This document shows positions 1,576 through 51,527 of a stretch of DNA of 64,000 nucleotides, one piece after another. A program made the position numbers and the translations under genes. Under the pieces are notes generated by a model. That model searched no databases. It worked only from the letters and a program-made list of their open reading frames with translations, and had not been told where the DNA came from. The stretch is from an uncultured Holophagales bacterium (GTDB lineage Bacteria; Acidobacteriota; Thermoanaerobaculia; Multivoradales; UBA5704): contig CAWJGT010000025.1 in the NCBI GenBank assembly GCA_963842525.1, positions 288,001 through 352,000 of the forward strand. Direction: 5' to 3'. The number at the start of each line of letters is the position of its first letter. The stretch's first letter is position 1.

Positions 1576-4500
1576 ATGGAGATGCAGGGCGTCCTCCGTC
1601 ATGTCCGGACCCGCTGGCGGGGGCTCTCCCGCCAGACGGCTTGGTTGACGATCGGGATCGCGCTCGTACTGGCCCTGCTCGTCCTGGAATTCTCCTGGGA
1701 ACGCTGCTTCTTCGACGGCTGCCCGGACGTTTCGACCCTGGCGGCGTACCAGCCGGGCGGGGCGCCCGTGATCCTCGACCGGCACGGCGAGGTCTTCGCC
1801 GACCTGACGCCGGTCGAGCAGAAGATCGTCCCTCTGGGCTCGCTGCCGTCCCATGTGGCGGAGGCCTTCCTCGCCGTGGAAGACCAGCGCTTTTACGCAC
1901 ACAACGGGGTCGACCTGCGGCGGGTCGGGGGAGCGTTGCTTGCAAACCTCCGGTCCGGCGGATTCGACCAGGGCTTCAGCACGATCTCCATGCAGCTTGC
2001 GCGCAACGTGTTCCCGGACCGCATCCCCGGGCAGGAGCAGAGCCTCGCGCGCAAGGCCCTGGAGGTCCGGGTGGCCCGGGAGATCGAGCACCGGTACTCG
2101 AAGCAGGAGATCCTCGAGCTCTATCTCAACCACATCTACTTCGGCAACCGGGCGCACGGCATCGAGGCCGCGGCCCAGCAATACTTCCGGATACCGGCCA
2201 CGCAGTTGAGCCTCACCCAGGCGGCGCTCCTGGCGGCGTTACCCAAGGCACCCAGCTATTACGACCCGCGCCGCCATCCCGAGCGGGCCCTCGAACGGCG
2301 CAATCTGGTCCTCAAGCTCCTGGAGGATCAGGGTCGGGTCCCTCACCTCCAGGCCCTCGAGGCGCAGCGCTCGCCGCTGGGCATGGCGCCGCCGCCGCGG
2401 CAGGAGAGGGTCGAGTCCGGCCTCGCCCCCTACTTCGTCGAGCAGGTCCGGCACGAGCTGGAGGAGCGCTTCGGCGCCGACCTCTACCGGCGGCCGCTGC
2501 GCATCCGGACGACTCTGGACTCGCGGGTGCAGCGCGCTGCCGAGGAGGAGCTCGCCCGGCAGCTCCGCCTCGTCGAGGACGGCGAGCTCGGGAGCTTCCA
2601 GGGCCCGCGCTACATGGCCGCCGATCAGCCTCCTCCCACCGGCACTCCCTATGTCCAGGGCGCGGTGGTGATGCTCGACGCCGTGCGCGGCGACGTGCTC
2701 GCCTGGGTCGGGGGCCGCAACTTCGCCCACTCGCAGTTCGACCGGGTGTCGCAGGCCCGGCGGCAGGCCGGCAGCGCGTTCAAGCCGTTCGTCTACGCCG
2801 CAGCGCTCCGCGACGGCTGGGTGCTCTCCCAGCCGCTCCTCGACCAGCCGCTGCGCGTGCGGCTGGCCAGCGGTCAGGTCTGGCGGCCCCGCAACTTCAC
2901 CAACGAATACGAGGGGCAGATCACCGTCCGCGATGCCCTGGTGCGCTCGAAGAACGTGCCGACCGTGCGCCTGGCGGACGCCATCGGCCTGCGGGAGGTG
3001 GCGGACACCGCCCGGGAGGCGGGGATCGACGAGCGCTTCTCCGTGGTCCCGGCCATGGCGCTCGGCACGGTCGCGGTATCGCCTCTGGAGCTGAGCGCGG
3101 CCTATACCGCCTTCGCCGGCCTCGGCGAGGGGGTCGAGCCCCGCTATCTCCTCGATATCCAGGACCTCGACGGCAAGGTGCTCTGGTCGTCGTCCTCTTC
3201 GCGCCGCAAGGTCCTCGATCCCGGCGTGGCCTTCCTGATCACCGACGTCCTGGCCGAGGCGTTGGAGCGGGGGACCGGCTACCGCGTCCGGCAGGCCGGC
3301 GTGCGGGTCCCCGCCGCGGGCAAGACCGGCACGACCAACGACGGCGCCGACGCCTGGTTCGTCGGTTATACGCCCGAGGTGGTCGCCGGCGTCTGGATCG
3401 GCTTCGACAAGCCGCGGCCCATTCTGGAGGACGCGACCGGAGGCCGTCTCGCGGCTCCGCTCTGGGCGCGTCTCGTCCAGCGGTTCCACGAACAGCGCCG
3501 ACCGCCACAGCCCTGGAAACGTCCGGCCGGCGTCGTGGTCCGGAAGGCGGACCCGGCGACCGGGCTGCGGCTGGAGGATGGCTGCGCGCCTCTCCGTGGC
3601 GAGGCGTACGACGAGCTCTTCCTCCAGGACTACGAGCCCAAGGCGTACTGCCCAGGCAAGGAGCCCGTGCCGCAGGACGGTTTCCCGACGATATGGCTCG
3701 CCAACAACCGCCGCCTCCGCGAGGAGGAGGAGCGCCGCCCCCTCGCACAGAAAGCGGAGCAGGCCGACGAGGCGCGCAAGCAGGCCGAACAGGAGCAGCT
3801 TACCCGTCAGGCCGCGGCCCGCCGCCAAGCCGAGCAGCAGGCCGCCCGCGAGACCGAGGAGCGGGAGCGGCTCGCCCAGGAGCGTCAGGCCCGCGACGAG
3901 GAGGCCCGCCACCTCGCCCAGCAGCGCGAAACCGCGCAGAAAAAAGCCGAGGAACGGCAAGTCGCCGCCGAGGCGCAGCGCAAAGAAGAGGAGAAGGCGG
4001 GGAGGTTGGCCCAGACACAGCGCCCGGAGGAGCTCCGGCGTGAGCGCGCAGAGCGGCAGGCGAAGGAGGTCCAGGAGACCCGGGCGGAGCAGGAGCGCCT
4101 GGCCCGCCTCCAGGACGGAGAGCGCCGCCTGGTCGAGAAGGAGCGCGAGCTGCGACGCCGCGAGGAGCGGCTGAGCAAGGAGCGAAAAGATCCGGAGTCG
4201 CGGCGGGCTGAGCCCAAGGCCGAAGAGCCGAAAGAAGAAACGAAACAGGATGAGGACGCAGAAGAGGACCGGGAAGAGGAGCCCCGGCACGGTCTCTCCG
4301 GCTGGTGGGAGATGACGAACCGGATCGACTCCACGAATTATGCCTCCTTCAAGGGGCTCCGGCTCGGCTATCGCGTCCAGCTCGAGCAGGACGGCAACCG
4401 GATCACCGGCCGCGGCCAGAAATGGGCCGAGGACGGCCGCACCCTGCCCGCCTCCGCCCGCACGCCCATCCGGGTTACGGGCTCCATCGACGGCGGCAAG

Positions 4501-4653
4501 ATCACCCTCCAGTTCACCGAACAGGGTGCTAAGAGGTCGACCAGCGGCGGCTTCACCTGGACCCTCTCGGCCGATCGAACCGAGCTGCGAGGCAGTTTCT
4601 GGAGCACCGCGGCCGGTACCAGCGGCAAATCGACGGCGGTGCGGATGCCGTAG
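1576..4653 (+). CDS. Class A penicillin-binding protein (PBP1A family) with charged coiled-coil and extra C-terminal domain
   Basis: TM anchor; transglycosylase motifs EDQRF, QGFSTISMQLARN, RKALE; transpeptidase SAFK, SKN, KTGT; long EQRA-rich tail and beta-rich terminal domain. Confidence 0.92.
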   Translation: MEMQGVLRHVRTRWRGLSRQTAWLTIGIALVLALLVLEFSWERCFFDGCPDVSTLAAYQPGGAPVILDRHGEVFADLTPVEQKIVPLGSLPSHVAEAFLAVEDQRFYAHNGVDLRRVGGALLANLRSGGFDQGFSTISMQLARNVFPDRIPGQEQSLARKALEVRVAREIEHRYSKQEILELYLNHIYFGNRAHGIEAAAQQYFRIPATQLSLTQAALLAALPKAPSYYDPRRHPERALERRNLVLKLLEDQGRVPHLQALEAQRSPLGMAPPPRQERVESGLAPYFVEQVRHELEERFGADLYRRPLRIRTTLDSRVQRAAEEELARQLRLVEDGELGSFQGPRYMAADQPPPTGTPYVQGAVVMLDAVRGDVLAWVGGRNFAHSQFDRVSQARRQAGSAFKPFVYAAALRDGWVLSQPLLDQPLRVRLASGQVWRPRNFTNEYEGQITVRDALVRSKNVPTVRLADAIGLREVADTAREAGIDERFSVVPAMALGTVAVSPLELSAAYTAFAGLGEGVEPRYLLDIQDLDGKVLWSSSSSRRKVLDPGVAFLITDVLAEALERGTGYRVRQAGVRVPAAGKTGTTNDGADAWFVGYTPEVVAGVWIGFDKPRPILEDATGGRLAAPLWARLVQRFHEQRRPPQPWKRPAGVVVRKADPATGLRLEDGCAPLRGEAYDELFLQDYEPKAYCPGKEPVPQDGFPTIWLANNRRLREEEERRPLAQKAEQADEARKQAEQEQLTRQAAARRQAEQQAARETEERERLAQERQARDEEARHLAQQRETAQKKAEERQVAAEAQRKEEEKAGRLAQTQRPEELRRERAERQAKEVQETRAEQERLARLQDGERRLVEKERELRRREERLSKERKDPESRRAEPKAEEPKEETKQDEDAEEDREEEPRHGLSGWWEMTNRIDSTNYASFKGLRLGYRVQLEQDGNRITGRGQKWAEDGRTLPASARTPIRVTGSIDGGKITLQFTEQGAKRSTSGGFTWTLSADRTELRGSFWSTAAGTSGKSTAVRMP

Positions 4654-4735
4654 GGCTGGGCACCGCTACAGAGAGACAGTACACTCTCTGGCGGGGGCCG
4701 GTGGGTTTAAAGTATGTGGCCAGTCATCCTGACTC

Positions 4736-5044
4736 ATGGACATCGAGACGATCAAGGCCAAGATCCGCGCCGACGAGTATGTCTATACTTCCCATGCCGA
4801 TCTGGAACGCAAGGCGGACGATTTGACGTTTACAGAGATCGAGACAGCGCTGCTTGGAGGCGAGATCCTGGAATCGTATCCCGACACTGGACGAGGCGAG
4901 AGTTGCCTCGTCGTAGGGTTCAGCGGCAACCGAGCCATCCACATTGTTTGCGGCTGGCGTGGGGTGAAAGCGGCGATCGTCACCGTCTATGTCCCGAAGC
5001 CTCCCCAATTCGTTGATCCCTGGACACGAGGAACTGAGTTATGA
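4736..5044 (+). CDS. DUF4258 domain protein (putative RelE-fold toxin)
   Basis: Y.YTSHA...R...EI..A...GEILESYPD..RG.SCLV.G...IHIV...IVTVY.P pattern. Confidence 0.82.
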   Translation: MDIETIKAKIRADEYVYTSHADLERKADDLTFTEIETALLGGEILESYPDTGRGESCLVVGFSGNRAIHIVCGWRGVKAAIVTVYVPKPPQFVDPWTRGTEL

Positions 5045-5289
5045 CGAAGGCGCGTTGCACCTACTGCGGGTCGGAGAGATCGGAGACGAGGAAGGTCGAT
5101 TACCTCTACAGCCATCAGGGGCAGTACCTCCTTGTTCCGAACACCCCGGTGGAAGTCTGCCTGGACTGCGGTATGTCGTTCTACGATGCGAAAGTCCTCA
5201 AGGAGATTGAGCGGCGTTTCTTCGCCATCCAGAACCATACAGAGCAACCCGAGGGCTACATCGAGATCCCGAAGGTCGCCTATCGTTGA
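5041..5289 (+). CDS. YgiT-type zinc-finger protein (MqsA-like Zn ribbon)
   Basis: CTYCG ... VPNTPVEVCLDCG; ATGA overlap with DUF4258 gene. Confidence 0.82.
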   Translation: MTKARCTYCGSERSETRKVDYLYSHQGQYLLVPNTPVEVCLDCGMSFYDAKVLKEIERRFFAIQNHTEQPEGYIEIPKVAYR

Positions 5290-5341
5290 GGCCTTCGCCC
5301 TCCTCTTATCGGCTCAGACGGGAGTGAGATAAGAGAGACAG

Positions 5342-6349
5342 TCAGGGCTGTGAGGTGATCTCCTTCGCCAGCTCCACCGCCGACAGCGGCGCGCTTCCTT
5401 CGGCGTTGTTGTTGATCGTGCAGAGGAAGGGCCGGCCGGCGGCGAGGGCGTCGCGGGCGAGCGCGGCGACGGCGTTGCGGGCGGCGGGGTCCGGAGCCGC
5501 CATCTTGTCGAAGGGGGCGTAGAGGCGGCCGGCGGCCTCGTAGGTCATGTTCGGCGCGAGGAGCCAGCGGATGATCGTCAGCGGCGTGCCCGGACGGTCG
5601 GTGCCGGCGCGCTTGGCCTGCACCCGGATCTCCGGCATCCGCGGGTGGACGTTGTGGCAGTGGCAGGCTCCCACCGCCGCCAGGGCGTCCGCATAGGCCG
5701 GGGTCAGGATCTCGCGGTTGCGCAGCTCCACGGCATAGACCGGACCCTTCGGCAGGGCGCCGAGGAAGGCCTGGAGCTCGTCCGCGAACTTCTCGGGGAC
5801 GCCGAGGTCCTGCGGCGCGATCTGGAAGAGGAGCGCGCCACCCTTCGCCCCCAATCCCTCGACGTAGGGCGCCACGACCTGCTCGGTCGTATAGACCGGA
5901 TCGAAGAAGAGCGGATTCACCTGGCCCCGGTGCTCGCCGTAGCGCGGCCGGTCCGGATAGCGCGCGATCGTGCAGGCCTCGTGCGCCTTGACCAGGAACA
6001 GGAAGCCCTCGGGCACCGCCTCCGCGTACTCGGCGAGGTCGTCCGCCGTGACAGGCGCGTAGTGGGTGCGATCGACCCCCACGCCCCGGAAAAGCGGATG
6101 TTTCGCATAGGCCGCGAGCCCTTCGTGCGCCAGCCGTGATTCGCTGTAGCGCTGGTCGTAGACCAGCCCCGCCCAGCCGGGGAACGACCAGGTCGATCCT
6201 CCCAGATGGATGCTCCGCGGCAACCGCCTCCCCAGGTCCCAGACCTCGCCGGACACCGGCGCCGGCTCCACGGCCGCCGGCTCCAGGTCTTCGGGAGTCA
6301 TCCCTGGGAAGAGCACGAGCTGGTCCTTGGATCCTTTCCGCCGCGCCAT
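5342..6349 (-). CDS. DUF72 family protein
   Basis: G.STWSFPGW.GLVY, D.THYAP, FLVKA, LLFQ, YAVELRN, NNAEGSAP motifs. Confidence 0.88.
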   Translation of the reverse strand: MARRKGSKDQLVLFPGMTPEDLEPAAVEPAPVSGEVWDLGRRLPRSIHLGGSTWSFPGWAGLVYDQRYSESRLAHEGLAAYAKHPLFRGVGVDRTHYAPVTADDLAEYAEAVPEGFLFLVKAHEACTIARYPDRPRYGEHRGQVNPLFFDPVYTTEQVVAPYVEGLGAKGGALLFQIAPQDLGVPEKFADELQAFLGALPKGPVYAVELRNREILTPAYADALAAVGACHCHNVHPRMPEIRVQAKRAGTDRPGTPLTIIRWLLAPNMTYEAAGRLYAPFDKMAAPDPAARNAVAALARDALAAGRPFLCTINNNAEGSAPLSAVELAKEITSQP

Positions 6350-6636
6350 GGCACAAGTCTATTCCCGGAACAGGGATGCGCGCTACACCTCCAGCCGGAA
6401 AAAATGCCGCCCGCGGGCCACAGCCATCCCACCTCAGCCGCTTGGATGCGATTCAAGGAACCGCATCGTCTCCGTGCCGGCGCGGAATTCAGTTTTCCGG
6501 ACGCCCCTGAAGAGGTCTCTCGGGAGCCGGCGGCAGGACGTTTCAAATTTCCGGAGCTGCACGCACGAACAATTGAACGATTTCGATCCATTCTCCTGGA
6601 TCGACCGTTCACCCTGCGGAGTTGGCATAAGGATCA

Positions 6637-6649
6637 CAAGTCATTGATT
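6637..6649 (-). promoter_or_regulatory. IHF binding site
   Basis: Reverse strand AATCAATGACTTG matches WATCAANNNNTTR exactly; lies about 30 bp upstream of the sigma54 motif. Confidence 0.6.
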
Positions 6650-6679
6650 TTCTTGGGTCAACTATGGTTTCCCGACCCA

Positions 6680-6694
6680 TGGCACATCGCTTGC
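6680..6694 (+). promoter_or_regulatory. Sigma54 (-24/-12) promoter of TonB-dependent receptor
   Basis: TGGCAC-ATCGC-TTGC, exact TGGCAC-N5-TTGC consensus; AAGGAG RBS before ATG at 6769. Confidence 0.7.
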
Positions 6695-6768
6695 GCTGAC
6701 CGGGCACATGGTTTGTTGCATGTTTTTGATTTGCAAGAGAGGGCGTAACGCGTAAGGAGACACATCCG

Positions 6769-9715
6769 ATGAGTAGAAACAGGTTGTGGCAGATCGTCCT
6801 CGCGCTCGCCTTGCTCCTTGGTTCTCTTGGAGGACCGGCGACGGCTCAACTGCAGACAGGAACCCTTTTTGGGACCGTTTCAGGACCGGATGGCGCGCCC
6901 ATTCCCGCGGTCAGAGTGACCCTCTCCGGCAGTGGAGCGCCTCAGGCCCAGGTGGCCGATGACCGCGGGAAGTTCCGGTTCCCGGGGCTTCCTCCCGGCA
7001 GCTACACAGTGGAGGCGCAGCCCGATGGTTTCACCCCGGTAAGATATCCGAACGTGATCGTCAGCGTAGGGCGCAACACTGAGATCGAGCTCACCCTCAC
7101 GCCGACACCGAACTTCACCGAAGTCGTGACGATCACGACCGAGCCTCCTCTGCTCGACACGCGCCGGATCTCGACGGGCAACGCCGTGTCCCAGACGGAG
7201 CTCGAGAAGATTCCCACCACTCGCGACCCGTGGGCCATCCTGCAGTCGACCCCGGGCGTGCTGGTCGACCGCGTCAACGTCGGCGGCAATGAGAGCGGTC
7301 AGCAGTCGCAGTACGTGGGGCCCGGCTCGAGCGGCGCCCAGGCCGTCTGGTCTCTCGACGGCGTGGTGATCACCGACATGTCGGCGACCGGCTCCTCGCC
7401 CGGCTATTTCGATTTCGACGCCTTCGAGGAGATGCAGGTGACGACGGGCGGCAGCGACGCCACGATCGCCACCGGCGGCGTCGTGCTCAACATGGTCACC
7501 CGGCGGGGCACCAACGAGTGGCGGGGCTCGGGCCGCTACTACGTCTCTGACCAGGACCTGCAGTCGGATCTCGAATTCGACGAGAATCGAGCTCGGCCAG
7601 GCCGGGCCCTGGAACCGCGGCACCGCGCAGACCGAGTTCAAGCAGGGCAACCGGATCGTCGAGGTCCGGGACTATGGCGTCGAGGCCGGTGGTCCGATTG
7701 TCCGCGACCGGCTCTGGTTCTGGGGCTCCTATGCCAAGCCGGAGATCGACCTCCTGACCATCAACGATTTCAGCGACAAGACCACTCTCGAAAGCTGGAA
7801 CGGCAAGATCACCGCGCAGATCTCATCGCACAACTCGGCCACTTTGTTCGCCTGGGACAGCGACAAGGTGAAGATCGGCCGTGATGCCGGTCCCCTGCGG
7901 CCGCAGGAGACCACCTTCAACCAGTCGGCTTTCGGCGACAAGCCGACCGCCTACAAGGTGGAGGACACCCATCTCTTCGGGTCGAGCTTCTACCTGTCAG
8001 GCATGTACTCGGTCGTCAACGGAGGATTCCAGCTCGAGCCGCAGGGCGGAGACAAGGTCCCCTATCTGGACTCGAATTTCAAGTGGAACAACAGCTTCTT
8101 CCTCTTCCAGATCGAGCGGCCGCAGGAGCAGCTCAAGGCGGACGCCGCCAGCTTCTTCAACACCGGCGGCTTGAGCCACGAGCTGAAGTACGGCGCCGGC
8201 TACCGGGTGGTGGAGCAGAGCTCGCTGGCCCACACCCCGGGAGGCGGCTGGGAGTTTGACGGCATCCTGCTGCTCGCCCGCGACGGCGTCACCAATTTCG
8301 AGGTCGACTATACCGACCTTTACATCCAGGACACGGTGGCGGCCGGCTCGTTCACGGCCAACATCGGTCTGCGCTATGACATCCAGGGCGGCCAGATCCG
8401 CGACACGGTCGTGGGCGCCAACCAGGCCTTCCCCGAGCTCCTGCCGGAGGCCCGTTTCGAGGGCCGCGACGCCGGCTTCGAGTGGAAGACCCTGGCGCCC
8501 CGGCTGGGCCTGACCTATGCCCTGGGCGAGCAGAAGAACACCCTCCTGCGCGCCAGCTATTCGCGCTTCGCGGACCAGCTCGCCTCCGGCTTCATCGGCT
8601 TCCTCAACCCCCTCGCCGGTCAGCAGTACCGGTATTTCCTCACCTCCAACAACGGCGGTCCGACTCTCGAGCCCGGCGAGCTGGGCCCCGAGATCGCGTC
8701 GCCGAGCGGGAACATCCACCCGGTCACGCTGCAGGCGCTGCAGTCGAACGCAATCGACTCCGACCTCCGCGCGCCCGTCACCGACGAGCTGCTGATCGGC
8801 GTCGAGCATGCGCTGCGTCCGGAGCTCGTGGTCGGCTTCAACGTCAACTACCGCCGGTACCACGACCTGCTGGAAGCCGAGCTGTTGGTCTTCGATGACG
8901 ACGATCCGTACTCTGCCGAAAACCTGAATCGTGTCGGCCGTGCGCACCGGCACGACGACTACGTCGCCGCCGAGACCCCTCTGACGGGCGTGCTGCCCAA
9001 CGGCGAGACCTACTCCATCCCGTACTACGAGCTGCGGCCGGGGCTCTCCACGCGCAACGGCTTCCTGCTGGAGAACGGAGACCGCGAGCAGGAGTTCAAA
9101 GGCGCGTCGTTCACCTTCACCAAGCGCCTCTCCAACCGCTGGATGATGCGCGGCAACCTCTCCTGGCAGGACTGGACGTGGGACATCCCCGACAGCGAGA
9201 ACGAGGACCCGACCGACACCATCGGCGGCGGCATCGTCGACGGTACCGAGGTCATGCAGGGCTCCGGCGTGGTCTCCGGCTCCAAGGGGAACGTGTTCAT
9301 CAACAGCGGGTGGTCGTACAACCTGAACGGTCTGTACCAGATCGCTCCCAGCCGGCCCTGGGGTTTCAACGTCGCCGCCAACCTGACCGGCCGTGAGGGT
9401 TATCCCCTTCGCTATGCCCGCCGCACCTCGCGGGAGACGCTCGCCGACACGCCGGGAATCGGCATCGACATCCCGGCCGCGACCGATCCGGACGCCTTCC
9501 GGTATGAGGACACCCACATCCTCGACTTCCGGGTGGAGAAGGAGCTCCACTTCAGCGACTTCGGGCTCACCGTGGGCGCCGACGTCTTCAACGTCTTCAA
9601 CCAGTCCTACGTGTTGCAGCGGCAGGGCCTCCTGAACGGGGGCAACTCGGACCACGTGCTGGAGATCCTCAACCCGCGCATCGTCCGCCTCGGAGCCCGG
9701 TTCAGCTTCCGCTGA
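6769..9715 (+). CDS. Oar-type TonB-dependent receptor with carboxypeptidase-regulatory-like N-domain (apparent +1 frameshift near 7588)
   Basis: Signal peptide, G.V..PDG.PIP...VTL domain, plug (RDPWAILQSTPGV), barrel ending in GARFSFR; ORFs 6769-7884 and 7844-9715 join if one base is removed near 7588 (continuation ELGQAGPW...GGPIVRDRLWFWGSY). Confidence 0.88.
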
Positions 9716-39949: not shown

Positions 39950-40492
39950 CTATTCAGCCTCGGCTTCGATCTTCGCCGCCGTGAAGCCGCGGGTGACCAT
40001 CTGGTAGGTCAGCGCGGCCATGCAGCGGCGGGCCACCTTGCGGACGCTCGACGGGTGGTAGCCCATCTGGGCGGCGACCTCGGCGGAGTCGTAGCCAAGG
40101 CCATAGCGGAGCTGGAGGAGCTTGCGGCAGCGCGGCGGCAGCTCGTCGAGCAGGGCGTTCAGGTCCCACAGCAGCTCGGCCCGCTCCTGCGGAGCCGCCA
40201 CCGGCTCCGAGAGCAGCTCGAGGATCGCCGTGTCGACCGTGTTGTAGAGGTTGTTGCGCTTCTTCCGCCAGTAGACGACGCACCGGTTGCGCAGGGTGAC
40301 CAGGAGCCAGGCCTCGGGGTCCTGGATCGTGTCCCACTTCTGGATCGTGGAGATGAGAGCCTCCTGCACGAGGTCTTCTGCGTCGTGGGCCGGCACCCGG
40401 TATCGGCTAAGCACTTGCTTCAACCTGGGACGGAGTCGTCGCAGGAGCTGGTCGAGAGACTCCCTTCCTATCGGTTGGTCAGACACAGCCAT
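39950..40492 (-). CDS. ECF-type sigma-70 factor
   Basis: Region 2 DAEDLVQE...AWL; region 4 LP.RCR..L.LRY..G....EVA..MG. Confidence 0.85.
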   Translation of the reverse strand: MAVSDQPIGRESLDQLLRRLRPRLKQVLSRYRVPAHDAEDLVQEALISTIQKWDTIQDPEAWLLVTLRNRCVVYWRKKRNNLYNTVDTAILELLSEPVAAPQERAELLWDLNALLDELPPRCRKLLQLRYGLGYDSAEVAAQMGYHPSSVRKVARRCMAALTYQMVTRGFTAAKIEAEAE

Positions 40493-40628
40493 CAGGGTCC
40501 GCTTTCTGGCACAACGGTCCGCTCCACTGGGAGCCAATCATAAACCCGGTGAGCACCGCTTGCCCACCCAAGTACCGGCATAGACCTGGTCGAGCCGTCA
40601 AGCAGGAGGATGATAAACTCCCGCCCGC

Positions 40629-42503: not shown

Positions 42504-42569
42504 GCAGTCCCCCTTGGGCCGTTGGTAGGGCCGGCCCTCTACACCCAATAGTGTAGACTGCTCGCCGCC

Positions 42570-44505
42570 ATGTGGACGGAGCTGAGGCGGGAGCTGGCGG
42601 GCGAAATCGCCCGCACGATCCGGGAGTGCTTCGGGGTCGAGCACGAGCCTGTCCTCGAAGTCCCCCCGCGGCGGGAGCTCGGCGACCTGGCCTCCCCCGC
42701 GGCCATGCAGCTCGCCCGGGTGCTCAAACGCAATCCGCGCGCCATCGCCGAAGAGCTGGCCGGCGCCCTCCGCCGGCCGCCGCTGGTGCGTGACGTCCGG
42801 GTCCAGGGCGCCGGCTATCTCAACCTGTACCTCGACCGCCGCGCCTTCGCCGCCGCCGCCCTCGATGCCCGGTGGCTGGGTGGTGGAGACGCTGGAGATC
42901 ACCGACCCGGCAAGGTCGTCATCGAGCACACCAACATCAACCCGAACAAGGCGGCGCACATCGGGCACCTGCGCAACGCCGTCCTGGGCGACGTCCTCGG
43001 CCGCGCCCTGCGCAGCCTCGGCGTTCCGGTCGAGATCCAGAACTACATCGACGACACGGGCGTCCAGCTCGCCGACGTGGTGGTCGGCTTCCTCGACCTG
43101 CGCGGCTTGTCGCAGGAGGAGGTCGAAGCGATCCCCGAGCCCTTCGACTACTACTGCTGGGACCTCTACAGCGAGGTGGGCCGCTGGTACGAGGAGGATC
43201 CCGCCCGCCAGCGGCTGCGCCGCGAGACCCTGCACGAGCTGGAGGCCGGCAGCGGGCCGCGCGCCGACCTCGGCCGGCTGGTGGCCCGGCGGGTGGTGCG
43301 CTGCCACCTCGCCACCATGCGCCGCCTCGGCGTCGGCTACGACCTGCTGACCCGCGAGAGCGAGGTCCTGAAGTAGGCACTTCTTCGACAAAGCCTTCGG
43401 GCTGCTCAAGGAGAGCGGCGCCGTCCATCTGGAAAAGGAAGGCAAGAACGCCGGCTGCTGGGTCATGCCGCTCTCCCAGAGCGAGGAGTTCGCCGGCCTG
43501 GAGGACCCGGACAAGGTGATCGTCCGCTCCGACGGCACGGTGACCTACGTGGGCAAGGACATCGCCTACCAGCTCTGGAAATTCGGCCTGCTCGGCGAAG
43601 ACTTCCTCTACCGCTTCTGGCAGGAGGAGGGGGTCTGGGAGACGTTCGGCGAGGATGCCACGGACCAGCACCCCGACTTCGGCCACGCGCAGCGGGTGAT
43701 CAACGTCATCGACGCCCGCCAGAGCTATCTCCAGAAGATCGTGCGCGCCGGCCTCCAGGCCCTCGGCCACAAGGAGGAGGCGGACCGCTCGGTCCATTTC
43801 GCCTACGAGATGGTGACCCTCTCGCCGGCCACCGCCCGCCAGCTCGGCTACCTGGACGAGGGAGAGGAGGCGGGCAAGGGCCTGGAGATGTCGGGGCGCA
43901 AGGGGATCGGCGTCAAGGCCGACGACCTGATCCACCAGCTCCAGTCGAAGAGCCGCGAGGAGATCGCGGCGCGCAACCGCGACCTGGCGGACGAGGAGCT
44001 GGACCGCCTGGCGCGCGAGATCGCCACCGCCGCCCTGCGCTTCTTCATGGTCAAGGCGACCACCACCCGGCTGATCGCCTTCGACTTCGACGAAGCCCTG
44101 AGCTTCGAGGGCGATTCCGGCCCCTACCTCCAGTACTCGCTGGTGCGGGCCAAGAACATCCGCCGCCGGCTGCGCGAAGAGGGCCTCGCCGACGAGGTCA
44201 CGGCCGGCGAGGTGGAGACGCTCGGCGAAGAGCATTTCGGCGAGGACCTCTGGGACCTGATCCTGGAGGTCGCGCAGACCGGCGAGGCGGTGGAGAAGGC
44301 GGCGGAGAGCCTCGAGCTGTCGCTGATCGCCCGCCACGCCCTGGGCTTGGCGCAGTGCTTCAACGCCCTCTATCACAAGCACCCGATCCTCCACGAGCCG
44401 GACCCCCAGGTCCGCGCCGCCCGCCTGGCCACGGTACAGGTCTTCGGCCGCGGCCTCGAAGCGGTCTGCGACCTGCTGGGCGTGCCGGTCCCGGACCGGA
44501 TGTAA
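42570..44505 (+). CDS. argS: Arginine--tRNA ligase (apparent +1 frameshift at about 43374)
   Basis: EHTNINPNKAAHIGHLRN (HIGH), RSDGT.TY..KDIAY, MSGRKG, GDSGPYLQY, ends P.RM; removing one T restores ...VLK-RHFFDKAF. Confidence 0.92.
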
Positions 44506-48436: not shown

Positions 48437-50720
48437 TCAATTCCCGCCCGCCGACGCGCCTTGCCTCTTGAGCCGGGCGGCGCGGGCGGCGAGGCGGGCG
48501 AATTCGGCCACGTCCGGCCCCTGGTCCGAGGTCGAGAGCTCGTTCACCAGCCGGCGCGAGCGGCGCAGGACCTCGTCCAGATTGCCCTCCTTCGCCGTCG
48601 GGGCACCCTTCAGGACTTCGGCGAGCTCGGCCACCAGGGAGGCCAGCCGGAGACCCCGCGGCGCCTTGTCCCAGCTCGCGGCCAGATCCGAGGCCCGGAG
48701 ACTCCTTGACCGTCTCCTGCTGCTCGCCGGTACCGGGCACCCGGTAGCGCAGCCGGAAGGTGGCGATCTTCTGGCTGTTCTGGACCCCGGGCCTGAGCTG
48801 GACCTCATAGAGCGCCGTCACGCTGTGCCCGGCGCCGACCTCGCCTGCGTCCACCGTGTTGTCGCGGAACTGCTCGTGCTTGAGCAGCCGGTTCTCGTAG
48901 CCGATCAGACGCCAGTGCACCACCGCCTTGGGGTCGAATTCGACCTGGACCTTGGCGTCCTTGGCGAGCGTCTGGAGCGTGCCGGAGAGCTGATCCACCA
49001 GCACCCGGCGGGCCTCCGCGAGGTTGTCGATGTACGCGTAGCCGCCGTCTCCCTTGTCGGCGAGCTGCTCCATCAGGACGTCGTTGTAGCTGCCCATGCC
49101 CACGCCGAGCGTGGTCAGCTCGATCCCCTGCCGGGCCTCGCGGCCGATCCGCTCCAGGATGGCGTTGGGTCCTGTGGCTCCCACGTTCGCCACCCCGTCC
49201 GAGCAGAGGATGATCCGGTTGATCGCGCCGTTGCGGAAGTACCGGCGAGCCAGGTCGTAGCCGGCGATCAGGCCGGCTTCGGCGTTGGTCGCACCCTCGG
49301 CCCGCAGGCTCTGGGTCGCCTGGCGGACCGCCTCGCGGTCGGCCGTCGGCTCGAGCACTACCCGGGCGTCGTTCCCGTAGACCACCAAACCGACCTTGTC
49401 GCCGGGACGGAGCTGGTCGAGCAGCAGGCCGAGGGACTCCTTGACGAGACCCAGGCGATTCTGCGCGTCCATCGACCCGGAGACGTCGACCACGAAGGTC
49501 AGCACCGAGGGCTTGCGGTTCTCGGGCCGGACCTCCCGGGCGCGGAGGTTGAAGCGCAGCAGGCGGTGGTCGGCGGGCGCGAAGGGGGTCGGGGCCCCCT
49601 CGGCGCGGAGGGCGAAGTCCGTCCGGGTCGGCGCCGGATCGCCGTAGCGGAAGAAGTTGACGAACTCCTCGACCCGGACGGAGGCGGGGTCCGGCAGCCG
49701 GCCTTCGCGCAGGAATCCCCGTGCCACGGTGTAGGAGGCGGTGTCCACGTCCAGCCCGAAGGTGGAGAGCGCGTCCGTGCCCGTCTCCGTGAACGGATTG
49801 GTGCCCACGGCCTGGAACCTGTTGTCGCGGAACCGGTCCACCGGCTCCTCACCCCCGACGCGCAGCGGAGAATCGTCCATGACGGCACCGGGGCCAGCCG
49901 CAACTCCACCGACCGTGCCCCCGGGCACACCACCGGGGACCCCTCCCACCACGCCGCCGGCGACTCCTCCTTCCACGCCTCCTTCCACGCCTTCGACCTC
50001 GGCAAGCTGGTCGGGGACCTCGACCGGCTGGACCGGCTCCGCGGCAGGCGGAGGGGCGTTGGCCCAGGGGTCCCGCGCGGCGGGGATCCTCTCGAGCTCC
50101 CGCTGATTGATGATGGCTCCCGTGGAGCTCCTACGCTTGTCGAGCAGCGGCGACTCGGAGGTGATCGTGACGACTTCGTCAGCAGCCCTCTGCCGCCGCG
50201 CCTCATCCTTCTCCTTCGCCGGACGCTCACCCACATAGCCCAGCGCCTTGAGCTCCTCCTGCTCGTCCCGTCGCGTCGCCTGCGGCACCGGCTTGGGAGA
50301 CGCCGGCACGGCATCGGCGGCCATCTGTGCGGTCTCGCTGTCCGGGGAGGCTGCCGGAGGCGGAACGGCCCGTGCCGCAGGGGGCGGAGGGCTCAGCGGC
50401 CGGATCTTCTGCTCCTCGGCGACCGGCTTCCGGACGGCCTCCAGCTCCTCGGGCTGGGGCGTCACTTTCATGACCTGCAGGGCGACCAGGCCGCCGCCGA
50501 TCGTGGCGACCAGCGAGGCGGCAATCAGCCACCTCCGCTGCCGGGGCTCGCGGGATCCCGGGCTGGGGAAGGCACGGACGTTGTCGCCCAGGACCCGTGG
50601 CCCGACATTGACCACCGGCGGGATCTCGCTCTTGATCTTTTCGAGCAGCCCCTCGGGCGGCTCGATATCGTCGCGCTCCGCCAGCTTGCGGGCGACTTCA
50701 CGTTCAGTCCAGGGGCTCAT
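48437..50720 (-). CDS. Membrane-anchored YfbK-like VWA/DUF3520 protein, putative anti-sigma factor (apparent +1 frameshift at about 48701)
   Basis: N-terminal PPEGL..KI segment, TM, STFGLDVDTASY, VRVEEFVNFF.Y, DVSGSM MIDAS, SDGVAN, LIGYENR, AGHSVTALYE; correct C-terminus lies in ORF 48437-48808. Confidence 0.85.
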
Positions 50721-51334
50721 CGGGCATCCTCCTCGAGCGTGCGCGCCAGGATCTGGAGCGCCCTCTTCAGGCGCTTGCGGATGGCGACAGGGGTGACCCC
50801 CTCGTGCTGTGCGACCTCCTTGACCGGGAGGTCGCCCCAGAAGAGGGCGGTCACGGTGAAGCGGAGCTCCTCCGGCAGGGCGAGCACAGCTCGCCGCAGC
50901 CGGTCTCCGGCCATCGCCTGTCCCACGATCTCTTCAGGATCGGGGTCGGGGTCCGGAGAGGTGGCCTCCACGCCCTCCTCCAGAGGGACGAAGAGGCGTG
51001 GCCTGCGGACATGGTTGAGGAAGGTGTTGTAGGCGATGCGGCAGAGCCAGGTCGAGAACTGGGACCGGCCATCGAACCCGGCCAGAGCGTCCCAGGCCTT
51101 ACGGTAGGTCTCCTGGGTCAGATCGGACGCCAGGTCGGGGTCACCGCACAGCCGGCGCAGCAGCGCATAGACCGTGCGATACGTCGACTCGACCAGCTTT
51201 TCCGCCGCCTCGCGGTCTCCTGCCGCGAGCGCCGCCAGCAGCCTGCCTTCCTGCGCTCCCTCGGATCGTTCCCGCAACCCACCTCCCCACCCGCTTGAAA
51301 CGGTCGCTGCTCGTTCTGTGGTCATCATTTTCAC
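50717..51334 (-). CDS. ECF-type sigma-70 factor
   Basis: ASDLTQET...F.GRSQFSTWL.RIA.N; region 4; ATGA overlap with VWA gene. Confidence 0.9.
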   Translation of the reverse strand: MKMMTTERAATVSSGWGGGLRERSEGAQEGRLLAALAAGDREAAEKLVESTYRTVYALLRRLCGDPDLASDLTQETYRKAWDALAGFDGRSQFSTWLCRIAYNTFLNHVRRPRLFVPLEEGVEATSPDPDPDPEEIVGQAMAGDRLRRAVLALPEELRFTVTALFWGDLPVKEVAQHEGVTPVAIRKRLKRALQILARTLEEDAR

Positions 51335-51370
51335 CTTACCTGCTCAGACACGGGAGGGGGGCGGAAGGAA

Positions 51371-51527
51371 ACCTCACCCCCTCTCCCATCTCCCTTCCAC
51401 CCCCCGCCGGGAGAGGGGGGACGCATCCGGAGCCGTTCCGCGAGATCGCCACACAGGCATCAACTACGTTCCCCCTCTCCCGGGGATGGGCGGGTGGGAG
51501 ATGGGAGAGGGGGCTAGGGGGTGAGGT
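51371..51527. repeat. G/C-rich palindromic REP/MITE-like element
   Basis: ACCTCACCCCCTCTCCCATCTCCC ... GGGAGATGGGAGAGGGGGCTAGGGGGTGAGGT; same family as 31932 element. Confidence 0.8.

Follow-up and report, generated by a model that had tools for sequence, protein, structure and literature searches.

A receptor-derived TonB-box segment in the tether of a putative VWA-type anti-sigma factor from an uncultured Holophagales bacterium

Why would a membrane protein encoded together with a sigma factor carry a piece of an outer-membrane receptor? The question is raised by a 64,000-nucleotide stretch of DNA from an uncultured Holophagales bacterium (GenBank assembly GCA_963842525.1, contig CAWJGT010000025.1, positions 288,001 to 352,000), which in its whole length is referred to here as the window and supplies the coordinates given below unless a contig or locus is named. 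On its reverse strand, the gene for an extracytoplasmic function (ECF) sigma factor of 205 residues (50717–51334) is followed by the gene for a YfbK-type von Willebrand factor A (VWA) membrane protein (48437–50720), a putative anti-sigma factor recognized by its open reading frame and Pfam matches, the overlap of the two genes and its orthologs. An earlier note on this DNA had pointed to a receptor-like segment in the periplasmic linker of the VWA protein and proposed that it acts as a decoy TonB box for the mechanical sensing of TonB engagement or receptor load, a role that is plausible. The analysis described here bears out the homology and extends it to the family; that the peptide of receptor origin functions, on an anti-sigma factor, as a docking site for TonB, such that engagement by TonB would gate the proteolytic release of the sigma factor, is a reading that we put forward tentatively, with a little less than even confidence.

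Receptor and TonB pieces in the tether

The receptor-derived segment, delineated with BLASTP and hmmsearch, spans residues 182–220 of the VWA protein (50061–50177, reverse strand) and comprises a predicted TonB box (EVVTITSE) and the first residues of a plug. Its counterpart is encoded on the forward strand of the same window by a TonB-dependent receptor gene (6769–9715), in which Pfam matches and open reading frames reveal CarboxypepD_reg, TonB box, plug and barrel, with the frame split at about 7844–7884. In the BLASTP alignment, 27 of the 39 residues are identical, without gaps, to residues 118–156 of the receptor (7120–7236; E-value 2e-13), as the earlier note had it. At the DNA level, 87 of the 117 bases are identical, and the 27 conserved residues are specified by the same codon in 17 cases and by a synonymous codon in 10; the likeness is therefore old and held at the protein level and does not stem from a recent copy.

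The position of the segment in the receptor is between CarboxypepD_reg (residues 32–111) and the Pfam Plug match (residues 138–234), that is, at the place of the short strand motif that precedes the plug. The N-terminus of FepA shows a weak alignment (E-value 0.044) with a profile built from the four receptor copies, which places VTA on the VTA that we take to be the end of the FepA TonB box; the segment presumably resembles the TonB boxes of Escherichia coli. Position and alignment support the view, already expressed in the earlier note, that this is the TonB-box/plug-start region and that the segment begins with the TonB box of the receptor. Across the 9.9-Mb genome, in which the VWA protein is single-copy, the 39-residue motif is limited to this protein and four receptor-type genes. 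A profile of the receptor plug regions matched the VWA protein in hmmsearch with an independent E-value of 3.9e-14, over positions 3–42 of 143 only; the protein contains neither a complete plug nor a 22-strand barrel.

The same receptor subfamily is represented outside the window by a protein of 1446 residues encoded on the reverse strand of contig C25 (genome G000, 444884–449224; 3885–8225 of locus L090), which consists of a signal peptide, VIT and VWA_3 domains, and a TonB box, plug and barrel. Its VIT-VWA part scores 619.7 bits, above the cut-off, with TIGR03788 (“marine proteobacterial sortase target”), and the protein amounts to a TonB-dependent receptor with a VIT-VWA N-terminal extension. 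Two further genomes of the class contain similar long frames, of 1469 and 1595 residues.

Closely behind the segment, residues 228–290 of the VWA protein (49851–50039, reverse strand) form a second module, which reads EPVQPVEVPD, then GGV repeats, then DDSPLRVGG. Among the 10 TonB_C matches in the genome, one is a 257-residue TonB with GGV repeats (L082:964–1734), the linker of which runs EPVQPVEVPD, GGV repeats and DDAPLRVGG. This similarity is hidden by the composition correction of BLASTP; an unmasked alignment combined with shuffling was therefore employed. The Smith-Waterman score of residues 228–290 against the TonB linker is 230, compared to 58 ± 10.5 (maximum 100) for 500 shuffles. The EPVQPVEVPD stretch is identical in the two proteins at 10 of 10 residues, with many synonymous differences in the DNA. 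Within a set of 120 TonB homologs, GGV repeats occur in 90 and a PLRVGG-type motif in 75. The GGV run that the earlier note had placed directly after the segment is indeed there, and the likeness to TonB turns out to be wider. By these homologies, the tether is a mosaic of receptor-side and TonB-side pieces of the TonB-receptor interface. What is shared with TonB is the linker only: the VWA protein contains no TonB_C domain, and its membrane helix, WLIAASLVATIGGGLVALQVM, includes no His, no Asp and no SHLS motif, in place of the His-bearing motor-binding helix of the TonB family.

TonB_C is found also at the end of three long non-TonB frames of the host genome, of 429, 1121 and 661 residues (C7:43432, L080; C8:29342, L085; and C11:197905, L087, respectively). 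By visual inspection of the translations, these look like a BlaR1/M56-type sensor and two protein-kinase-like proteins, and the organism may have put TonB_C to wide use as a signalling module.

Distribution of the fragment and of the sigma-coupled module

A search with residues 1–300 of the VWA protein yielded 254 proteins; the counts out of 120 given below refer to the 120 that were listed, mostly labelled Thermoanaerobaculia or Acidobacteriota. These were compared with the plug profile, which was made from the plug regions of the four receptors of the genome (143 positions), and a match was considered significant at a domain independent E-value of at most 0.01. A plug-derived stretch was significant in 68 of the 120 homologs, within the same disordered tether, and the conservation in relatives that the earlier note had named as a check is thus found. 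Positions 11–20 (PLLDERRI) are kept in 53–54 of the homologs, positions 53–72 (INVGGNESGQQ) in about 47 and positions 80–110 in 13–19, with almost nothing beyond position 120. Judged by this recurrence, the plug fragment is a family trait and not a one-off scar. Its length varies, and the pieces are sometimes scrambled (P0003, P0004 and P0064) or interrupted or replaced by GGV repeats (P0035 and P0058). In a subgroup of homologs of 445–575 residues, the fragment is kept and no VWA-domain Pfam family is listed.

Identities were compared for the 31 homologs in which one stretch covers positions 12–70 (465 pairs). Pairwise identity averages 0.65 for the fragment, compared to 0.63 for the N-terminal module, 0.51 for the folded C-terminal part and 0.41 for the flanking tether, and the fragment is more identical than the C-terminal part in 397 of the 465 pairs, the figure for the fragment being inflated by the selection of these proteins through their match to the fragment profile.

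The part of the protein that is invariant in the family alignments is the predicted sigma-coupled module (50463–50720, reverse strand), which was defined by alignment, AlphaFold2 modeling and synteny and consists of cytoplasmic residues 1–35 with two short helices, a variable spacer and a membrane helix at about residues 64–86; the invariant columns are M1, L13, E20, P21, P22, G24, L25, L26, K30, I33, P34, W64, L65, A67 and A68. Residues 1–100 match no Pfam anti-sigma family at an E-value of up to 10 (CwsA, below the cut-off, is the only match of the N-terminus), and the two short helices predicted here differ from the four-helix class I anti-sigma domain (zf-HC2/RskA). The tether likewise matches no Pfam family at an E-value of up to 10. 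Queried with the first 90 residues, 12 of 121 genomes of the class were found to carry the module, and in all 12 a gene for a close ECF sigma factor lies directly upstream. The same arrangement occurs in 8 Acidobacteriota loci that were the related ones in a separate scan of genome contigs with VWA-core patterns, which mostly retrieved YfbK proteins of other phyla. The synteny, together with the invariant N-terminus, supports the role of an anti-sigma factor that the earlier note had suggested for the VWA protein.

What follows the module differs from genome to genome. It is joined to a VWA head in 4 of the 12 genomes (L097, which is the window's own, L098, L100 and L106), to CarboxypepD_reg in four others (by Pfam in L099, L101 and L105, and by sequence read by eye in L103), and, in L107 and L108, to TonB_C preceded by a GGV linker and a PLRVGG motif; L102 has the module without a Pfam family, and L104 is outside the Pfam set. 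When a profile of ten N-termini was run against 1.84 billion representative sequences, 543 proteins were detected at an E-value of at most 1e-3. Pfam analysis of 99 representatives, drawn from the 109 with at least 250 residues among the 150 listed, found TonB_C in 4, CarboxypepD_reg alone in 10, CarboxypepD_reg with a YfbK-type head in 5, other full VWA heads in 11, a YfbK-type architecture without a VWA match in 27 and nothing in 42. A TonB-box-like strand follows CarboxypepD_reg in 6 of the 8 proteins that were inspected, and in P0359 CarboxypepD_reg is followed by the plug fragment itself, which reproduces the receptor N-terminus as a unit. Members such as the window protein appear to display a receptor-derived TonB box, and some relatives also the N-terminal domain of the receptor. 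This swapping of modules of the TonB-receptor interface is the strongest of the indirect arguments that the fragment is important for contact with the Ton system.

The gene pair and its surroundings

The sigma factor matches Sigma70_r2 (E-value 2.6e-18) and Sigma70_r4_2 (1.7e-08) in Pfam as well as TIGR02937 (sigma70-ECF; 93.2 bits against a cut-off of 42.9), and with regions 2 and 4 only in about 200 residues it has the layout of an ECF sigma-70 factor. Its stop codon overlaps the start codon of the VWA gene in ATGA. The VWA protein contains, downstream of its single membrane helix and the tether, vWF_A (PF12450; residues 298–388, 49557–49829, E-value 1.2e-24), VWA (residues 407–566, 49023–49502; VWA 1.3e-14 and VWA_2 1.9e-16) with the DxSxS motif of the metal ion-dependent adhesion site (MIDAS), read in the translation as DVSGSM, and, from residue 580 on, YfbK_C (DUF3520, PF12034; 48437–48983, E-value 1e-29), all on the reverse strand. 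This is the YfbK-type architecture, with YfbK_C interrupted by a frameshift and complete only when the frameshift is skipped. Both the overlap of the genes and the single-pass, YfbK-like architecture are thus as the earlier note described them. Within the tether, the motif LKALGY (residues 157–162, 50235–50252, reverse strand) was delineated because L-x-x-LGY recurs in the otherwise variable tether in the family alignment, with one L position nearly invariant in A8; in the AlphaFold2 model of the ortholog P0002, this region is a weak helix (146–157) with a predicted local distance difference test (pLDDT) score of 50–60.

The pair stands alone among unrelated genes: a HAD hydrolase and an enoyl-CoA hydratase are encoded 5' of the sigma factor gene, and an AAA ATPase and an MscS channel 3' of the VWA gene. 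No gene for a protease partner was found in the neighborhood of the pair, and Pfam detects no FecR, DUF4974 or STN domain in either the VWA protein or the receptor, which has CarboxypepD_reg instead of STN. Another ECF sigma factor gene (Sigma70_r2 and Sigma70_r4_2; 39950–40537, reverse strand) is located 10 kb from the first.

The frame of the VWA gene is broken by a single extra base at 48701, which was identified by the opening of the frame upon its removal and by a related contig that is devoid of it. The 766-residue open reading frame departs from the true frame near residue 670, and the YfbK_C match in this first frame covers only profile positions 1–79 of 184; with base 48701 dropped, an open frame of 760 residues ends at 48437. 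The rest of YfbK_C is found in the open reading frame at 48437–48808, and the C-termini of the orthologs match that frame. The base is absent from one contig of a related soil organism (n = 1 contig, depth 3). No public sequencing run that covers this stretch was found (the best share was 0.10), and four read runs yielded contigs of relatives only, including the one without the base. We read the frameshift as probably an assembly error because other genes are split as well, namely the essential argS (42552–44505, forward strand) and the receptor gene (6769–9715, forward strand) in the window, and a receptor gene on contig C19; alternatively, it may be a true strain-specific break. More generally, the split genes of the window and the C19 receptor suggest single-base indel errors in the assembly.

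A candidate autoregulated ECF-type promoter, GGTTTC-N16-GTGTCTGA, lies about 10–40 nucleotides 5' of the start of the sigma factor gene (51344–51373, reverse strand; C25:339373(-) in the genome). The two blocks, with their 16-nucleotide spacing, are conserved 5' of the sigma factor gene in L001, L002 and L003. The strict motif, GGTTWC-N16-GYGTCTRA, has three sites in the genome, one at the pair's own operon and two more (C3:1655118, forward strand, and C1:547179, reverse strand; L093 and L094). These extra sites (GGTTTC-N16-GTGTCT-RA) lie 5' of a 1867-residue alpha-2-macroglobulin family gene and 5' of an RnfD-like/DUF2330 operon, which are possible members of the regulon. When five related genomes were scanned, the sole matches to the strict motif were at the sigma operon itself, in 2 of the 5, and the regulon lead was not confirmed there.

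Precedents and possible roles of the tether

The coupling of ECF sigma factors with VWA proteins is already known. In the ECF catalogue (Casas-Pastor et al. 2021, PMC7826278), groups ECF289 (Proteobacteria) and ECF226 (Acidobacteria 56%, Planctomycetes, Verrucomicrobia) have a one-helix anti-sigma factor with a von Willebrand domain and DUF3520 at position +1, and ECF226 is reported to have no conserved context beyond the pair. The pair in the window has the same architecture, an ECF sigma factor followed by a +1, one-helix protein with VWA and DUF3520 (that is, YfbK_C), and is likewise a lone pair; the assignment is made from this architecture and from relatives labelled Acidobacteriota/Thermoanaerobaculia rather than from group profiles. 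The difference is that the available part of the catalogue gives Pfam domains and makes no mention of the tether, the TonB box, the plug pieces or the TonB-like linker. DUF3520 is also listed there as a neighbor of ECF35, which fits a set of loci (L048, L053–L057, L060, L067, L073 and L078), several of them from Pseudomonas and other Gammaproteobacteria, where a gene for a YfbK-type VWA protein is closely followed by that of an ECF sigma factor. In group ECF255 of Bacteroidetes, an anti-sigma factor with TonB_C and CarboxypepD_reg is encoded beside a VWA+DUF3520 protein, and contact of this anti-sigma factor with a Ton-box transporter has been suggested (PMC7826278 supplement). The same modules are thereby tied to an ECF sigma factor, TonB_C or CarboxypepD_reg being found in siblings of the window anti-sigma factor. 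However, in ECF255 the modules reside on separate proteins and represent the TonB side, whereas the window protein carries a receptor-side TonB box and only the linker of TonB.

Three further systems share parts of the design. In FecA-FecR-FecI, an ECF sigma factor is held by a single-pass anti-sigma factor and freed by sequential proteolysis; the trigger is the TonB box of FecA with the force of the motor, and the release of the C-domain of FecR is TonB-dependent (PMC12036975). There, however, it is the outer-membrane receptor that carries the TonB box, and the contact of the anti-sigma factor is with the signalling domain of that receptor, whereas in the window the TonB box is on the anti-sigma factor, and the pair lacks the FecR, DUF4974 and STN domains and an adjacent receptor gene. 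Motor-coupled YfbK-like vWA “force transducers” tethered to the inner membrane have been proposed (Mol Biol Evol 2025, PMC12204202), and the window protein resembles these in its membrane helix, disordered proline-rich linker and YfbK-like vWA head, with a TonB-like topology. In contrast to the window protein, the force transducers have an SHLS/His or ExbD-like helix and tolQ/tolR-like neighbors; the window protein adjoins an ECF sigma factor gene, is flanked as a pair by HAD hydrolase and AAA ATPase genes, and has a putative sigma-coupled N-terminus. In SusC, a carboxypeptidase-regulatory-like extension directly precedes the flexible Ton box, DEVVVTG (Gray et al. 2021, PMC7782687), and the same domain order is seen in the window receptor and in several sibling anti-sigma factors; in SusC, however, the module forms the N-terminal end of a transporter in the outer membrane, whereas here a regulator of the inner membrane carries the module, or its Ton-box part, as a graft. 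Full-text literature searches, judged by their listings and by the available part of the ECF supplement, retrieved no description of a TonB box on an anti-sigma factor, and both the Ton-interface mosaic in the tether and the family-wide pattern appear to be new.

The predicted structure is compatible with a linear motif in the tether. In the AlphaFold2 model of the intact ortholog P0002 (73-sequence alignment, pLDDT 72.7), helices 6–15 and 25–32 are followed by a single membrane helix, 61–87; residues 88–303, apart from the weak helix, are mostly below pLDDT 50, the fragment itself being at 30–41, and the head from about residue 310 on is mostly above 90. In the model of P0060 (52 sequences), which has no Pfam VWA match, a plug remnant of 116 residues is disordered (pLDDT 36–54). 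The disorder over the fragment is consistent with docking through a linear motif. Neither a partial plug that is folded nor a pose of the fragment as pseudo-ligand is supported, the whole tether being below pLDDT 50–55 in both models.

In favor of the TonB-docking reading are the pairing of the two genes with the conserved candidate promoter, the homologies to the receptor and to TonB, the recurrence and conservation of the fragment in the family, the fusion of the same N-terminal module to TonB_C or CarboxypepD_reg in siblings, and the predicted disorder. Precedents are the relay of TonB force to FecR through the TonB box of FecA (PMC12036975) and the contact with Ton-box transporters suggested for the ECF255 anti-sigma factors (PMC7826278 supplement). 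Under the proposed mechanism, the short conserved cytoplasmic segment would bind the sigma factor, and the single membrane helix would lead to a periplasmic tether with about 210 disordered residues and to the vWF_A/VWA/YfbK_C head with its intact MIDAS. TonB energized by ExbBD would engage or pull the tether, in competition with substrate-loaded receptors, and this engagement would alter the exposure of the tether to site-1 cleavage, upon which regulated intramembrane proteolysis would free the sigma factor. The VWA head might bind a further ligand in the periplasm or at the outer membrane. A broader claim, which we consider rather doubtful, is that the anti-sigma factors of this family are direct clients, or readers, of the Ton system: the proton-driven TonB would pull on an inner-membrane regulator instead of a receptor, the siblings with TonB_C would read exposed TonB boxes of receptors, and the availability of TonB and the occupancy of receptors would be converted into transcription without an outer-membrane transducer.

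Several observations weigh against TonB docking. A significant fragment is absent from 52 of the 120 homologs, and among the 109 proteins with at least 250 residues in the 150 listed out of the 543 found with the N-terminal profile, only 15 contain the plug fragment. The window copy is short, at 39 residues, and has diverged further than most others; in the close relative L002, the TonB-like linker is present but the TonB box is absent, and in L001 no more than a remnant is left. The order of the TonB box and the GGV module differs among homologs, INVGGNESGQQ, which has no known role in TonB binding, is retained nearly as often as the TonB box, and the identity comparison is biased toward the fragment by the way in which the proteins were chosen. 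Direct coupling to the motor is unlikely because the membrane helix lacks His and SHLS. Of the four receptor genes, the three that lie outside C19 have no ECF-type promoter 5' of them, and two of these three have sigma-54-type sites (TGGCAC-N5-TTGC) instead (at about 6690–6710 of the window and upstream of L090:8225). In addition, 8 of the 12 module-bearing genomes have no strong match to the receptor subfamily (best E-values 1e-8 to 1e-15); the tally of 120 of 121 genomes includes two marked as unpublished, G109 and G009, on which no claim is based alone. In 79 loci, no receptor of the subfamily is encoded within 8 kb of the VWA gene, and the receptor gene of the window is 41 kb away from the pair. 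The lack of a promoter, of a nearby receptor and of a strong match in these 8 genomes disfavors a simple receptor feedback loop.

Some of the same features could instead belong to a mimic of unfolded receptors, an explanation that we regard as unlikely. The tether would imitate the N-terminus of an uninserted or damaged receptor and share a periplasmic chaperone or protease with it; a pile-up of unfolded receptors, or a protease attack on the envelope, would leave the tether cut or unprotected and free the sigma factor. The logic would resemble that of the sensing of outer-membrane proteins by RseA and DegS, with the bait built into the anti-sigma factor. The predicted disorder of both the fragment and the 116-residue remnant, the retention of plug pieces beyond the TonB box in about 47 of the 120 homologs, the scrambled order of pieces in P0003, P0004 and P0064, and the strict promoter motif in front of the alpha-2-macroglobulin gene and the RnfD-like/DUF2330 operon all point in this direction. 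However, the regulon lead is weak, with the motif confined to the sigma operon in 2 of 5 related genomes, no protease partner is encoded nearby, and the siblings with TonB_C as well as the copied TonB linker are left unexplained.

We assign a similarly low probability to the explanation that the tether is an evolutionary left-over, shuffled together from the N-terminus of a receptor and an anti-sigma factor of the TonB type and serving now as a flexible periplasmic spacer with decaying remnants. The patchy presence, variable order and many truncations of the fragment, its interruption or replacement by GGV repeats in P0035 and P0058, its rarity among the representatives and the short, diverged copy in the window would all be expected of decay. 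Yet neutral sequence would no longer be recognizable, given how far these proteins have diverged elsewhere, whereas the fragment is more conserved than the head (with the ascertainment caveat given above), its amino acids have been kept across synonymous divergence, and it is still present in homologs that appear to have lost the VWA domain.

Least probable, and indeed improbable, is that the fragment is a built-in pseudo-ligand by which the VWA/MIDAS head, which would bind the acidic TonB-box region of receptors (ESPLLDxRR) released into the periplasm, is blocked until the copy is displaced: the MIDAS is intact, the 1446-residue protein of the same genome joins VIT-VWA to the same TonB-box/plug sequence, and ECF255 operons encode a VWA+DUF3520+CarboxypepD_reg protein beside a TonB_C anti-sigma factor (PMC7826278 supplement), but the fragment docks on the head in cis in neither AlphaFold2 model and is still found in homologs that have no VWA match in Pfam.

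The conversion of TonB force into transcription is understood for one layout only, in which a signalling domain of the receptor acts on a FecR-type regulator. A regulator with a TonB box of its own, if the TonB-docking reading is true, would be a second and simpler layout and, as far as the literature was searched, the first reported case of a TonB box on an inner-membrane protein of the cell itself. Three soluble pieces, namely the sigma factor, the C-domain of TonB and a peptide of 50 residues, would make a compact system for the study of TonB action on clients other than receptors, and the tether would provide the first functional lead for the uncharacterized groups ECF226 and ECF289 and for VWA proteins of the YfbK type. 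Should the segment serve instead as bait for envelope proteases or chaperones, it would represent a new, built-in mimic of unfolded receptors. Either way, conserved and informative motifs that escape domain catalogues can reside in the disordered tethers of anti-sigma factors.

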